Below, one piece after another: positions 17,124 through 63,144 of a stretch of 64,000 bases of DNA; the first letter of the stretch is position 1; the number at the start of each line of letters is the position of its first letter. Source of the stretch: Octopus vulgaris (lineage: Eukaryota); contig OX597833.1 of assembly GCA_951406725.2 (NCBI GenBank), positions 43,338,001 through 43,402,000 on the forward strand. Direction: 5' to 3'. A program made the translations under genes and the position numbers. The notes under the pieces were generated by a model. That model was not told the DNA's origin, searched no databases, and worked only from the letters and a program-made list of their open reading frames with translations.

Positions 17124-17169
17124 AAAACTGTTACTCAGAGTTTCACGTTCCCGTTCGTCGGACAGTTTT
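17124..17169 (-). ncRNA. Type I hammerhead ribozyme (U4C core variant)
   Basis: Minus strand AAAACUGU-CCGACGA-ACG(GGAA)CGU-GAAA-CUCUGAG-UA-ACAGUUUU: 8-bp stem I, GNRA-capped stem II, near-palindromic stem III, GUA cleavage triplet. Confidence 0.82.
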
Positions 17170-17980
17170 GTTTAGATGTATGTATGTATGTATGTATGTA
17201 TGTATGTATGTATGTATGTATGTATGTTTGTATGTATGTATGTATGTATGTATGTATGTATGTATGTATGTATGTATTCGTGCATTCAAGAATGTGATAT
17301 ATAAAGAAGCCTCTAAGTTGTCATTTCACCTGCTAGTCGGAGCAGCCAATTCTCATTCAAATTACATACTAATATCTTGCAAATGGAAGGCTAGAAATGT
17401 GTGTATATATATATATATATTTATGCTGAAACATAGAAATATACGATATGACTGCTGCGTATGCCTGGAATGCGTTTGATCATGGTTCTGCTCCTACGGG
17501 GAACACACGGGATTAAACAACGATTGTCACCATCCTACCCAACCAACCAACCGGCTTATCTAACCACTCGTTCTCATAAGCTACGCGGAATATTCACTTT
17601 GACGAGTCCGGCAGACGAAAACGGTAACTGGATAGCATAGCTCCATTATTTTCAATCATCGCCCGAATCTCTCTCCCATTCCTAAGAGAAACAAAGGATG
17701 CTGTGTGCGAGATTTTTTTTTGCGATCTACGAACGCATATATATATCTGTTGGTACATGTGTATATGTGTGCCTGCGGAGTTTGTGTGTGTGTGATGGGG
17801 TCTGATAGCTGGGAGAGAATGAAATGAGGTAGACTGGATCACGTGATCATTGCATAAAAACGATGCGGGGACATGAGATAAATAGTGTGTTTGTATTTCT
17901 ATCTCTCCACTATACACACACACATAAACACACGCATACACACACACAATCACACACACATACACACACTCACACACACA

Positions 17981-18157
17981 CGAAAGGGTGCTGAAATATT
18001 CCTGGTTCCAATGGCTTTAAATGTATGGCGAAAGACTTAGGTAGAAGAGCTTAGACAAAGTGAATCTGAGAGAGGAATATATTGAATAAAATCATAGTTA
18101 ACTGATCCCCTTGTATTCTCTTTTAACCAAAGCCAGAAACTTTTCAATGCCCTCTCA
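17981..18157. mobile_element. Mariner-type MITE, degenerate
   Basis: Ends resemble the TIRs of 31760-31976 (CGA.GGG.TGCTGAAA…CCTGG / CCAGAAACTTTTCA..CCCTC). Confidence 0.6.
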
Positions 18158-18163
18158 TATTTT

Positions 18164-18572
18164 GTCTTTTACATGTTTCAGTCATTAAACTGCTTCCAAG
18201 CCGAGGCACCACCATGAAGGCTTTAGTCAAACAAATCGACTCCACTGCTTTTTTTCAAGAATGGTACTTATTCTATCGATGTCTTTTCCCGAATCGCTAG
18301 CTTACGAGGATGTAAACAATCCAACACCGGTTGTCAAACAGTGGTGGGAGACGAACAAGCACAAAGACATTCAGACTCACACATACATACATATATACAC
18401 GCGCGCACACACACACATATATTACGGGCTTCTTTCAGTTTCCATCTACAAAATCTACACCCAAGTCTTTGCCCGGCTCGTGGCAGTGGTTGAGAAGCAA
18501 GTTTCTAGTCAGGCCTCAAAACATCAAAACCCAGTTACCAGCGTAGTAGGCAGGTATACTTACCACCACACT
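18164..18572 (-). mobile_element. SINE family A copy, decayed
   Basis: Homologous to 2005-2411. Confidence 0.72.
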
Positions 18573-18699
18573 ACATACATACATACATACATACATACAT
18601 ACATACATACATACATACATACATACATACATACATACATACATTCATAGACACGTATATCACTTTGTATATATAACATTGTATACACCCGTTCATTGA

Positions 18700-58797: not shown

Positions 58798-60140
58798 ACA
58801 CACACACACACACACACACACACATTCTTTGTTTTGTCCTGTATTGTCCATAATGTTTTCCTTAATGTAAACCCTTGTGGTTAATAAAGAAATTATTATT
58901 ATTTTGTGAGGTATACTACCCACCTCAATATGGCTAACCACTAAGGGTGGGTGTTACTGTAGCTTGTAGCCCCTGGAGAGCATCGTCTCCAGCTGGCTTT
59001 AGGCACACTTTCTGTGCCCTTATGGTATTTGCAAAGGGAGGCCATCCCTCTCTCGTAAACCTAAGTGATACGCACGGACTGCAGTTTCTAGGTAGCTTGT
59101 ACCCCACATTGTCGTGCAATTACTGTTTACATCTCGTTCAGAGACTTATTATTGCTTACTATTATTTCAATAAATAGGAATACGAATGTTTATTTCCATG
59201 GATAGCTGTATCTTAACGTGTGAGTGTATGCATGTGTACGCGTGTGTGTGTGTGTCTGTGTGTGTGTGTGTGTGTGTGTGTGTGTGTATGTGTGTGTGTG
59301 TGAAAGAGAGATAGAGAGAGAGATAGAGAGAGAACGTACTTATGTCTAAAATTGATAGTTTACTTGTGTGTCACCTAGCAGCTGAACGCGACCAGCCCCT
59401 TGACGAGGCTCGAGTAAGCTGTCACTTGTTGATATAATAAACACATCTTAAGAGCTTACTCCAGGTATACAGTTCTACATCAGAGAATTCACCTTATATA
59501 AAATATATTTGTATTTTACAATTTATACATTATGAATTATAAGAGCGTATATGTGTGCATAATACGTAGTGGTGTATGCGTTGTGTATACATACACCTAC
59601 ACACACATCATTTGTATATATATATATATATAACAATGATAAATCTCATATATATATATATATATATATATATATATATATATACATACATACATATGTA
59701 TGTATGTATGTATGTATCTCTTTTACTCTTTTACTTGTTTCAGTCATTTGACTGTAGCCATGCTGGAGCACTGCCTTTAGTCGAGCAAATCGACCACAGG
59801 ACTTATTCTTATTCTATCGGCCTCATTTGCCGAACCGCTAAGTCACAGTGACGTAAACACACCAGTATCGGTTGTCAAGCGATGTTGAGGGGACAAACAC
59901 AGACACACAAACATACACACACACATACATTTATATATATATATATATATATATATATAATAATAATAAATATTAGGGAATAAATCCAAATTTACAGGGA
60001 AAAAATCAGATTTAGGATTAAATCCAATTTTATAGTAAAATATTATATAATATTATTAGAGACAAAACCACTATTTTGCAAAACAAACAAGGAAAGACTT
60101 AATCAATACATAAAATTTTAATAAAAAGTCAAAAAAACCG

Positions 60141-60183
60141 CCACTACAATTGTTTCTTGTCCTGATCGACAATCTTCAGGTGG
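60141..60183 (-). ncRNA. Canonical minimal type I hammerhead ribozyme (inverted copy)
   Basis: Exact reverse complement of 63102-63144. Confidence 0.88.
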
Positions 60184-60272
60184 ACTTCCAATCTAAAATA
60201 TCAATATTTTAAAATATAAAAATAATAATTTTAAAATAATTAAAGTATTAATGAAAAAATATAAATATATAT

Positions 60273-60492
60273 ATTTCTTTATTGCCCACAAGGGGCTAAA
60301 CATAGAGGGGACAAACAAGGACAGACGAAGGGATTAATTCGATTATATCGCCCCCAGTGCGAAACTGGTACTTTATTTATCGACCCCGAAAGGATGAAAG
60401 GCAAAGTTGACCTCGGCGGAATTTGAACTCAGAACGTAACGACAGACGAAATACCGCTAAGCATTTCGCCCGGCGCGCTAACGTGTCTGCCA
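60273..60492 (-). mobile_element. SINE family B inserted in the left inverted arm only
   Basis: Absent from the corresponding position (~63000-63025) of the right arm. Confidence 0.88.
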
Positions 60493-63101
60493 TATATATA
60501 ACCTATATATAATCCATATATAATCAATATATAAACAATATATAAACTAAAATAAACCTATCAACAATTAAATATAAAACAAAACAAAAAATAAACTATA
60601 TATACACCCATACACATATAACTAATTATATATGACCATATCTAAATACATACACTAAATCACACACCTATATATATATCCCTATACATACACATAAAAA
60701 CGTCTAGGCAACGATAAATAAATAAAATAGCCAAATACTTCAACACAATACTTATTCATACTCCCTCACACACACATACAACCCACATTCCCGCTCTAGA
60801 AACGAACATCATTTTTTTTATATATCGTATTATGTGTAATAATGTTGTTTTTCTTTGGAGTGTTTATGTATGTGGGAATGTGTGTAAGTATGTGTGTATT
60901 TTAGTTGTATAATTTATTTATCTGTATGAGTGTGGGTGTGTAAATATTGTTGTATATATCGAGTTTAGTGAGTATGTATATGCGTATATGTGAGGGAGTA
61001 TATGTATATGTTGTGTGTGTGTGTGTTTTACGTATGTATATTTGTGTGTGAATGTGTATATGGGTTTGTTATATAGGTTTGGGGATGTATGTGTTAATTT
61101 ATCTGTGTGGGGTGGGAGTGGGTTTTTGGTGTATATTGAGGTTTATACGTTAGTATAGGTATGTGTGAGTGAGGTGGGTATTTGTATAAGTCGTGGGTCT
61201 GTGGTTTACGTGTGTGTATTTGTGTGTGAATGTTTAGGTTAGGGGGATTGCTATATAGGTTTGTTATAGAGTTTAGCAAAGGGAGATTTTATCATTATAT
61301 GTTTTTATGAGTTTTAATTTATCATGGTAGTTTTATTAAAGAATTCGTAGTAATTTGTCTATTTACGATGTTTGTTATTTTATTACATTATTTCATTCAT
61401 AATTTTTAAGTAATGTTCGTTTTACCACGTGAATATAATTTTTAATTCCATTTATTCCATTTCTCCATTCATAATTTTAAAAGATGTTCGTTTCCAGAGC
61501 GGGAATACTTTTTATACATATGTTAGGTTCCTTGGTAACGTAATTTTGTTTGGTGTATATGTTGAGGCTTATATGTACTTATAGGTATGTGTGAATGAGG
61601 TGGGTATTTGTATTTGTTATGGGTGTGTGGTTTACGTGTGTGTATTTGTGTGTGAATGTATAGGTTAAAGGGATTGCTATATAGGTATGTTATAGGGTTT
61701 AGTAAAGGGAGGTTTTATCATTTATGTTTTTATGAGTTTTAATTTATCATGGTAGTTTTATTAAAGAATCCATTCATAATTTTTTAAAATAATGTTAGTT
61801 TACCGCGTGAATATAATTTTTAATTCCATTTATTCTATTTCTCCATTCATAATTTTAAATGAAGTTTGTTTCCATAGCGCGTATTCTTTTTATACATATG
61901 TTAGGTTCCTATGGTAACGTAATTTTGGTTTGATGTTTTTAACGGCTTAGAATTTAATTTCACTTCATAATTTGAAACTGACTTGAAAGTATGTATATTA
62001 TTTCTCCTTAGGTCATATTGTTATTTTTGATATTCTGGTTACTTACGATGTATTTTATATATCGTATTATGTGTAATAATGTTGTTTTTCTTGGAGTGTT
62101 TATGTATGTGGGATTGTGTGTGAGTGTGTGCGTATTTTAGTTGTATAATTTATTTATCTGTATGAGTGTGGGTGTGTTAATATTGTTGTATATATCGAGT
62201 TTAGTGAGTATGTATATGTATATGGTGTGTGTTTTACGTATGTATATTTGTGTGTGAATGTGTTTATGGGTTTGCTATATAGGTTTGGGGATGTATGTGT
62301 TTATTTATCTGTGTGGGGTTGAGTGGGTTTTTGGAGTATATATTGAGGTTTATATGTATGTATAGGTATGTGTGAGTGAGGTGGGTATTTGTATATGTCG
62401 TGGGTCTGTGGTTTACGTGTGTGTATTTGTGTGTGAATGTTTAGGTTTAGGGGGATTGCTATATAGGTATGTTATAGAGTTTAGTAAAGGGAGATTTTAT
62501 CATTATATGTTTTTATGAGTTTTAGTTTATCATGGTAGTTTTATTAAAGAATTCGTAGTAATTTATGTCTATTTACGATGTCTGTTATTTTATTACATTA
62601 TTTCATTCATAATTTTTAAGTAATGTTCGTTTTACCAAGTGAATATAATTTTTAATTCCATTTATTCCATTTCTCCATTCATAATTTTAAATGATGTTCG
62701 TTTCTAGAGCGGGAATGTGGGTTGTATGTGTGTGTGAGGGAGTATGAATAAGTATTGTGTTGAAGTATTTGGCTATTTTATTTATTTATCGTTGCCTAGA
62801 CGTTTTTATGTGTATGTATAGGGATATATATATAGGTGTGTGATTTAGTGTATGTATTTAGATATGGTTATATATAATTAGTTATATGTGTATGGGTGTA
62901 TATATAGTTTATTTTTTGTTTTGTTTTATATTTAATTGTTGATAGGTTTATTTTAGTTTATATATTGTTTATATATTGATTATATATGGATTATATATAG
63001 GTTATATATAGATTATATATTTATATTTTTTCATTAATACTTTAATTATTTTAAAATTATTATTTTTATATTTTAAAATATTGATATTTTAGATTGGAAG
63101 T

Positions 63102-63144
63102 CCACCTGAAGATTGTCGATCAGGACAAGAAACAATTGTAGTGG
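63102..63144 (+). ncRNA. Canonical minimal type I hammerhead ribozyme
   Basis: CCAC-CUGAAGA-UUGUC(GAUCAG)GACAA-GAAA-CAAUUG-UA-GUGG: all core nucleotides intact, palindromic stem III ACAAUUGU, GUA triplet (cleavage after 63140). Confidence 0.9.

Follow-up and report, generated by a model that had tools for sequence, protein, structure and literature searches.

Hammerhead motifs at the ends of Penelope-like elements and in two tandem retrozymes within 64 kb of the Octopus vulgaris genome

Introduction

What carries the eight hammerhead ribozyme motifs that lie within 64 kb of the Octopus vulgaris genome, and how were they put there? The stretch in question, called the window throughout, comprises 64,000 nucleotides of contig OX597833.1 (assembly GCA_951406725.2, positions 43,338,001 to 43,402,000, forward strand). 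A preliminary description made from its sequence alone had read the motifs as at least five unrelated families of non-coding, retrozyme-like elements mobilised by Penelope-like elements (PLEs). We arrive at another answer for three of the families. With a probability of roughly 85%, PLEs and short non-coding repeats that PLE enzymes likely copy bear the eight motifs as hammerhead folds at their 3′ ends; cleavage is predicted for each only once two copies have paired by way of a palindromic stem III.

Minimal hammerheads of PLEs, their dimers, their weak cleavage and a U3-A8 core variant have been described together with limpet and oyster examples (Cervera and de la Pena 2014, PMC4209133). Animal retrozymes and their circular RNAs have units of 150-450 bp (Cervera and de la Pena 2020, PMC7229834), and a recent preprint derives retrozymes from PLE termini and gives units of 51-972 bp (Li, Clavereau and Pollet 2026, 10.64898/2026.07.22.740005). 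The preliminary description was not aware of a catalogue of the system in cephalopods. Some entries exist: the hammerhead of Hydra-1_oBim, an octopus PLE, is listed in File S2 of a study that treats the Hydra clade of PLEs (Craig et al. 2021, PMC8557442), and 235 Rfam hammerhead_1 loci are reported from the giant squid genome (PMC6962438). Otherwise cephalopods seem barely catalogued. No catalogue of cephalopod hammerheads was found in the open-access literature, a coverage that excludes Lunse et al. 2017 and the supplement of Cervera 2020; the main text of the latter contains no cephalopod word, and a 2026 octopus repeat annotation (PMC13282606), which counts 31 recently active PLE families, does not mention ribozymes. 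Further cited sources are Marino 2022 (PMC8967140) and PMC13481778.

Results

Eight motifs in six insertions of five families

A type I hammerhead-like fold is present at all eight sites of the window named in the preliminary description. A descriptor that accepts CYGANGA or UYGANAA cores recovered seven of them, with three stems around the core and the open end in stem I, and 49 of 50 block-shuffled windows contained no match (one contained a single match). The site at 24095 was the only one missed; its stem II has only two pairs and opens with an A-G mismatch. A strict descriptor found three canonical and three U4C cores, compared with 0.02 and 0.01 matches per shuffled window (100 shuffles). 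The motif frequency is thus far above that of shuffled sequence. Rfam, which had been put forward as a check, gave no hammerhead among the 150 of 192 matches listed for the whole window, the only Rfam search that covered family A, and local scans of families B, C, D and E yielded none at E values up to 10. Since minimal PLE forms in the literature were found by descriptors, this miss does not exclude membership; as a check, Rfam simply overlooks the four families scanned locally.

The attribute 'well-formed' applies strictly to three sites with the canonical CUGANGA core, 39909-39954 (+), 60141-60183 (-) and 63102-63144 (+). Four sites have a U4C core (CCGANGA), namely 17124-17169, 24095-24132, 28059-28150 and 28647-28738, all on the minus strand, and 29628-29669 (+) has a U3-A8 core (UUGAAAA) when stem I is read from 29628. 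Both are known hammerhead core variants. The latter site was at first taken for a novel CUGCAUUGAAAA core, which was ruled out when the scan gave a shifted stem I and the U3-A8 core. U4C had likewise been considered as possibly new and was set aside in view of a viroid, in which it lowers in vitro activity yet permits infection (Perreault 2011, PMC3088659), and of a 2026 survey that used CYGANGA as its search descriptor. Tested against C3-U4-G5-A6-N7-G8-A9, G12-A13-A14, A15.1-U16.1 and H17, the cores of families D and E are exact and those of A, B and C variant. The 10.1-11.1 pair, for which type I hammerheads strongly prefer G10.1-C11.1, is G-C in B, C and D, U-A in E, and A-U or A-G in A. 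Stem III is palindromic at all sites, as had been noted, and 4-9 nt long, with one unpaired centre base in family A. Self-cleavage is predicted at the NUH sites of the eight motifs.

The eight sites represent six insertions of five families: A (17124, 24095), B (28059, 28647), C (29628), D (39910) and E (60141, 63102). Hence the stems are mutually unrelated among the families and not among the sites, as 17124 and 24095 are 77% alike, 28059 and 28647 form a 99.5% identical tandem pair, and 60141 and 63102 a 99.6% identical inverted pair. Microsatellite flanks, described earlier for every site, are found in four families (A, B, C, E); the sequence on either side of D is not repetitive, and the (AAT)n run of D is internal. 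The insertion signature of PLEs is also found in A, B, C and E. The inserted 3′ ends lie downstream of the cut site and not at it.

Families A and E are ends of coding Hydra-type PLEs

17104..17175, minus strand: family A, what remains of the 3′ terminus of a Hydra-type PLE; 66 bp match the pseudo-long terminal repeat (pLTR) of a PLE encoding 727 amino acids (aa) at 85%; hammerhead 17124-17169, U4C, predicted GUA cut between 17132 and 17131
24058..24143, minus strand: family A, second remnant, of which 86 bp match that pLTR at 92%; hammerhead 24095-24132, U4C, A-G at 10.1-11.1, 2-bp stem II
59960..60814, minus strand: family E, inverted arm with 3′ tail, SINE-like repeat (SINE, short interspersed nuclear element) inserted at about 60272-60492; hammerhead 60141-60183
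60840..63263, plus strand: family E, terminal 2.4 kb of a 4-kb 3′ untranslated region (UTR) belonging to a second Hydra-type PLE; it matches the UTR of locus L332 at 94.7%
63102-63144, plus strand: family E hammerhead, canonical core, stem III ACAAUUGU, predicted GUA cut

Judged from their longer genomic copies, A and E are the 5′-truncated ends of two Hydra-type PLEs whose intact open reading frames (ORFs) of 727 and 852 aa lie elsewhere in the genome. The expectation that autonomous PLEs share such termini was therefore borne out, as these ORFs are flanked by A and E hammerheads. Long copies of A contain reverse transcriptase (RT) and GIY-YIG frames, and the 727-aa ORF exists in many near-identical copies. 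In the five loci fetched, the A hammerhead always follows this ORF, and in three it also precedes it. The 852-aa ORF begins 275 bp past an E hammerhead in L335, has one 4.0 kb behind it in L332, and is flanked on both sides in L336. The arm of E in the window is 95% identical to the L332 UTR, and two wider inverted pairs revealed the linked ORF. The best 40 copies of its nuclease region are 99-100% identical. Family E had been considered non-coding on the basis of seven loci without a linked ORF, until longer copies with the 852-aa ORF overturned this view.

The 727-aa protein carries RWK53, DKT129, YRDD360, CxxC683 and CxH711 and lacks CxCx5C. The 852-aa protein carries DKT129, YxDD360, CxCx5C703, CxxC809 and CxH838, with KWK in place of RWK. 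Going by these motifs, both ORFs display the Hydra-clade features, i.e. RT followed by a C-terminal GIY-YIG domain, DKT, and CxxC and CxH near the end. Pfam gave no match to a 507-aa stretch of the 727-aa ORF, whose protein has 1,596 database relatives, almost all unnamed.

Family A is heterogeneous. About half of its members are U4C, and U4 accompanies A11.1 and the coding subfamily; position 10.1-11.1 occurs as A-U, A-G, A-C or A-A. Among the loci fetched, the C4 subfamilies lacked an ORF linked within 1.5 kb, and they have their upstream terminal sequence in common with the coding subfamily. Many A copies (L001-L020, L207-L236) break off, frequently at an inversion, no more than about 15 bp upstream of stem I, whose long hairpin may hold up reverse transcription.

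Families B and C are non-coding tandem retrozymes

27855..29081, minus strand: family B, a 588-bp non-coding unit repeated head to tail (2.1 copies), with (TA)n runs on either side
28059-28150 and 28647-28738, minus strand: family B hammerheads, U4C, 60-nt stem II, stem III ACGUACGU, predicted GUC cuts 588 nt apart
29328..29513, minus strand: family C, inverted, 5′-truncated arm carrying the 3′ tail
29515..29838, plus strand: family C, most of a 362-bp non-coding unit
29628-29669, plus strand: family C hammerhead, U3-A8, stem III ACGCGU, stem I bulge UAC, loop 2 CAAUA, predicted GUC cut after 29663

B and C are the only non-coding tandem retrozymes among the five families, so that the earlier count of five shrinks to two; A, E and D are truncated 3′ ends of coding PLEs. 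The units of B and C (588 and 362 bp; GC content 37% and 40%; longest stop-free frames 70 and 98 aa) have one type I hammerhead each and form direct arrays of up to 10 and 6 units, respectively. Copies are 98-100% identical and are arranged as direct arrays with inverted, 5′-truncated arms and tails between (TA)n runs. Both families were laid down with the PLE signature: a fixed 3′ end in (TA)n, variable 5′ truncation, an inverted 5′ arm and a short tail. A PLE insertion pattern matching these arrays is drawn by Craig et al. 2021 (PMC8557442). Neither B nor C matched PLE proteins. Diverged relatives (72-91%) of B ends without the hammerhead part occur in L164, L191 and L076 and are a lead to the B mobiliser.

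The minimum-energy homodimer folds of B and of C are double hammerheads. U4C is present in 77 of the first 100 B matches, and tandem neighbours are alike in state. U3 and A8 are coupled across 1,675 C-type matches, a coupling that the search patterns demand.

Family D joins a decayed PLE end to a tRNA-like module

39584..39672, minus strand: family D, inverted 3′ arm
39682..40004, plus strand: family D, 3′ end of a decayed Poseidon-type PLE
parts of the latter, plus strand: last 25 endonuclease codons (39682-39756), tRNA-like module (about 39789-39862), (AAT)n, minimal hammerhead (39909-39954)
39909-39954, plus strand: family D hammerhead, canonical core, stem III ACGU, predicted GUU cut

Coding traces identify D as the end of a decayed PLE, for which we assume a Poseidon-type parent, a label taken from motifs. 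Positions 39682-39756 of the window code for the last 25 residues of the endonuclease, and upstream sequence of genomic copies matches PLE RT (E value 3e-25) and reads, with breaks, as thumb and nuclease. Past the stop codon follow a 74-nt module with words resembling A and B boxes, (AAT)n and the hammerhead. What we take to be the boxes was matched to the consensus by eye. A plain tRNA-headed SINE had been considered, and was overturned by longer copies with RT and endonuclease frames upstream. Insertions of D show inversions and no (TA)n target.

Exact 18-mers of D occur 925 and 1,200 times in the genome upstream of the module, 6,097 times inside it, a count that includes any copies lacking the hammerhead, and 8,169 times at the hammerhead; copy number thus rises fivefold at the tRNA-like module of the 3′ UTR. 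This step suggests a short transcript beginning at the module. Among 23 D hammerheads in distinct contexts, not counting loci through which the long copies were found, 11 elements start within -30 to +5 of the module, three inside it, none further upstream, and nine have no module; that is, 11 of 14 module-holding copies begin within -30 to +5. The copy-number step suggests that D may have given rise to a hammerhead SINE born from a PLE. Against the SINE reading, ARAGORN called the module a tRNA in none of eight loci, and Rfam likewise returned no tRNA match for it.

Hammerheads throughout the genome

Copy numbers were obtained with exact patterns in the 2.8-Gb genome, with the reversed pattern as control. 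The family patterns gave 8,871 matches for A, 320 for B, 1,055 for C plus 620 for an older subfamily, 8,169 for D and 1,683 for E, each with a reversed control of 0. Generic minimal patterns yielded 11,153 U4C (reversed 58) and 12,728 U4 motifs (reversed 70). Seven disjoint patterns sum to 36,430 motifs, a lower bound that leaves out D because it overlaps the generic U4 pattern and that corresponds to one motif per 77 kb. In 310 loci (1.14 Mb), the descriptor found 184 matches in 29 clusters, compared with 0-2 in three shuffles; most matches are the searched-for copies, and some clusters divide one family. By eye, about 20 families are present in 1.1 Mb of loci. The large and diverse population postulated earlier, tens of thousands of motifs in many families, thus exists. 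Extra hammerhead families, unassigned to elements, with a long stem II and a 6-12-nt palindromic stem III were seen in flanks of L124, L165, L189, L199, L206, L299, L307, L309 and L070.

A GIY-YIG search led to two more ORFs: an RT-nuclease frame of 781 aa (Pfam RVT_1 and GIY-YIG) with a U3-A8 hammerhead in its terminal repeats, and a partial one of 574 aa that has a U4C hammerhead. In the 781-aa PLE (L187:2768-6468, L200), an upstream 479-aa ORF overlaps in another frame, which suggests a frameshift-linked ORF1. The commonest U4C family, G, stands before an 803-aa RT frame in L311. Going by such linkage to coding frames, at least five PLE lineages, not counting D, have hammerheads of their own.

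U4C is borne by the young B arrays and by an autonomous PLE terminus. As the exchange creates a CpG, some U4 copies result from decay. Several large families here have U4C as their predominant form, a core that did not come up when the text of one of two supplement files of Cervera 2014, which holds an alignment, was searched. Neither did our literature searches, with Lunse et al. 2017 and the Cervera 2020 supplement outside their coverage, find U4C as the main form of large animal families.

Other features of the window

27615..27825, plus strand: family G, decayed 3′ end with a broken hammerhead at 27677, absent from the preliminary description; intact relatives with a U4C core flank the 803-aa PLE RT frame
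34298-34472, unstranded: family B end fragment without hammerhead
34547-34613, unstranded: family A end fragment without hammerhead
57118..57270, plus strand: short decayed piece of a Hydra-type PLE ORF (ITLKDHK region), weakly supported

Two Penelope remnants had been proposed. The one at 57148 is weakly supported: 57157-57270 is 45% identical over 38 aa to the 727-aa Hydra-type ORF (E value 8.5e-4 against the 64-kb window), and its motif also occurs in published Hydra proteins. It has no standalone support: searches with a 47-aa peptide at 57118 were empty for Pfam, the genome and a large protein set and gave only three repeat-protein matches among representatives. The one at 51770 matched none of 14 PLE protein pieces tried and is unsupported.

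Exons of an ENaC/degenerin (amiloride-sensitive sodium channel) gene lie at 55398-56210 (+; Pfam ASC, E value 5e-33), and several elements may be in its introns or flanks. A 5S rRNA match at 5966-6084 (+; 75.9 bits, above the Rfam gathering score) lies immediately ahead of a tandem SINE-like repeat of 185 bp. A highly abundant repeat (about 184 bp) forms partial head-to-tail tandems at 6098-6707, 8816-9250, 48786-49205, 51903-52701, 56551-56883 and 60272-60492. It is arranged like B and C, one copy splits the inverted arm of E, and no hammerhead was found in it in scans. A 516-bp direct repeat (99.8%) at 19306-20545 contains the word CUGAAGA at 19726 and 20450, and has diverged relatives at 46386-46556 (within 46227-46556) and 11203-11428 and an inverted structure at 18973-19245; descriptor scans revealed no full hammerhead in these regions. 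Two 3′ ends of a long interspersed nuclear element (LINE), presumably of Dong/R4 type, lie at 12968-14185 and 16732-16967 (-) and terminate in (TAA)n, with zf-RVT below the Pfam cut-off. The first A remnant is inside the tail of one such LINE, and three D copies elsewhere come after the same LINE end. Right behind family E, a transposase-like frame that we assume to be of Tc1/mariner type starts at 63820-64000 (+); it also occurs at L132:2304-2861.

Discussion

The elements of the window resemble known systems in many respects. With the hammerheads of PLE pseudo-LTRs (PMC4209133; PMC8557442) they share the type I fold, a very small palindromic stem III, a predicted action as dimers, a majority of truncated or inverted copies, insertion into (TA)n, a short tail and the U3-A8 variant, which is reported for Schistosoma mansoni. 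The stems of the Hydra-1_oBim hammerhead (Craig 2021, File S2) are unlike those of any family in the window. B and C resemble animal non-LTR retrozymes: their tandem units are low in GC, lack ORFs and contain a single type I hammerhead, and the genome also has active PLEs. In C, the stem I bulge and loop 2 are retained in canonical form. In contrast to those retrozymes, both have variant cores, and B with 588 bp and a 60-nt stem II exceeds the range of Cervera 2020, though it is inside that of Li 2026. Moreover, 24 of 57 Xenopus families match known elements (Li 2026), whereas no matching autonomous terminus was found for B and C.

The proposed life cycle starts from tandem transcripts that would fold as double hammerheads and be cut to unit length (588 and 362 nt). 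A host ligase would close these RNAs into circles, and the RT and GIY-YIG endonuclease of a PLE would copy the circles in trans into (TA)n targets, in more than one round. U4C cores might cut slowly and so spare uncut templates. Some observations are consistent with such a cycle. Units diverge less within arrays than between loci, inverted arms included (B 0.36 versus 1.21%, C 0.50 versus 2.51%), which would fit repeated copying of one circle. The C fold is more stable than its shuffles (z -7.2), and an alignment of 32 distinct C sequences, which leaves out two loci with truncated flanks, has 89% pairing cells and 19 double-change cells compared with 5.6 in shuffles. Subfamilies of C retain pairing through double changes at 10.1-11.1, in stem III and in distal stem I. 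The B unit and its head-to-tail joint are covered by contigs of two runs guessed to be RNA and equally by two large runs of unknown kind; hence these are no evidence for circles.

Several points weigh against this interpretation. Cleavage and circles are predictions here; only one of nine Xenopus retrozyme dimers cut in vitro (Li 2026), and minimal PLE hammerheads cut weakly (Cervera 2014, PMC4209133). When folded freely, A, D and E do not adopt the hammerhead, although their stem III words form duplexes rather than hairpins. Stem II of A is poor even in the active subfamily, with A-A at 10.1-11.1. The stem covariation that had been expected across copies is seen in the double changes of C and fails at the level of covarying pairs, whose number (4) does not exceed shuffles (260 of 500). 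As the double changes coincide with the split of two subfamilies, they amount to about three events, and stem III columns are partly fixed by the search pattern. Low within-array divergence would be explained as well by subfamily haplotypes or a homogenised source array, and the figure for B comes mostly from one locus (L244, 66 of 81 pairs). Finally, no autonomous partner of B or C was found by DNA or protein match among the PLE termini and proteins in hand, a comparison that was not genome-wide.

These points leave some room for an explanation that we consider unlikely, although it deserves attention: the elements are as described, yet most hammerheads no longer cut and persist as folded 3′ signals or relics, their RNAs being copied without ribozyme action. 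Eight of nine Xenopus dimers were inactive (Li 2026), Naiad PLEs spread without canonical hammerheads (Craig 2021, PMC8557442), and family A tolerates four combinations at 10.1-11.1. Even the young B arrays and an autonomous PLE terminus bear U4C, which lowers in vitro activity in one natural case (Perreault 2011, PMC3088659). What speaks for retained function is that cores stay within known active variants over about 20 families whose stems differ wholly, that stem III palindromy survives double changes, and that U3 and A8 are coupled not only in the C-type matches, where the patterns require it, but also in a separate PLE.

It is improbable that B and C are minisatellites or repeats of the kind of miniature inverted-repeat transposable elements (MITEs) spread as DNA, with the 128-bp inverted repeat of C as a terminal inverted repeat. 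C in the window does resemble a TA-flanked inverted-repeat element, and unequal crossover can expand tandem arrays. However, the inversion point of C varies by copy and many copies are direct partial tandems, arrays with a fixed 3′ end are scattered over all large contigs with one hammerhead kept per unit, and fixed 3′ ends with random 5′ inversions recur in 15 to 25 loci per family. Highly improbable is the original proposal that all five families are non-autonomous, non-coding retrozymes. The window contains no coding sequence of A, B, C or E, and in the loci fetched no ORF was linked to the C4 subfamilies of A over a distance of 1.5 kb. Yet intact ORFs are bordered by the termini of A and E, the window itself has D behind the C-terminal end of an endonuclease, and the C4 subfamilies have the upstream terminal sequence of the coding one; for E and D, the non-coding reading is already refuted. 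That the motifs are chance matches in AT-rich repeat DNA can practically be dismissed: minimal hammerheads are short and Rfam scores none, but shuffles gave 0.01-0.02 matches per window and 0-2 per 1.14 Mb against 184 (mostly searched-for copies), which refutes it.

We thus return to hammerheads at the ends of PLEs and of repeats likely copied by PLE enzymes, a system of a known kind that is abundant here and seems barely catalogued in cephalopods. Its freshest lead is family D. Schistosoma has SINE-like repeats in which a promoter precedes the hammerhead (summarised by Weinberg 2019, PMC6765202), and the short form of D likewise consists of a tRNA-like module followed by a hammerhead. In contrast to those repeats, the D module lies in a PLE 3′ UTR right after the stop codon, and short D copies have 5′ inversions of the PLE type. 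No PLE-derived polymerase III hammerhead SINE was found in the open-access literature. Tentatively, and with somewhat more doubt than confidence, we propose that a Poseidon-type PLE captured a tRNA-derived polymerase III promoter just past its stop codon and spawned a hammerhead SINE copied thousands of times by PLE machinery, and that several lineages in the same genome adopted the slow U4C core as a cleavage brake. If true, D would show the stepwise origin of schistosome-type promoter-plus-hammerhead SINEs from PLE ends.

In summary, naming A, D and E retrozymes would overcount non-autonomous families. The octopus genome is a rich test bed, in which more than 36,000 motifs match exact patterns, about 20 families were seen, no fewer than five autonomous PLE lineages have hammerheads of their own and two retrozymes are very young. 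Its natural U4, C4 and U3-A8 sister subfamilies make it possible to ask whether cleavage rate matters for the spread of PLEs, a question left open in the PLE papers.

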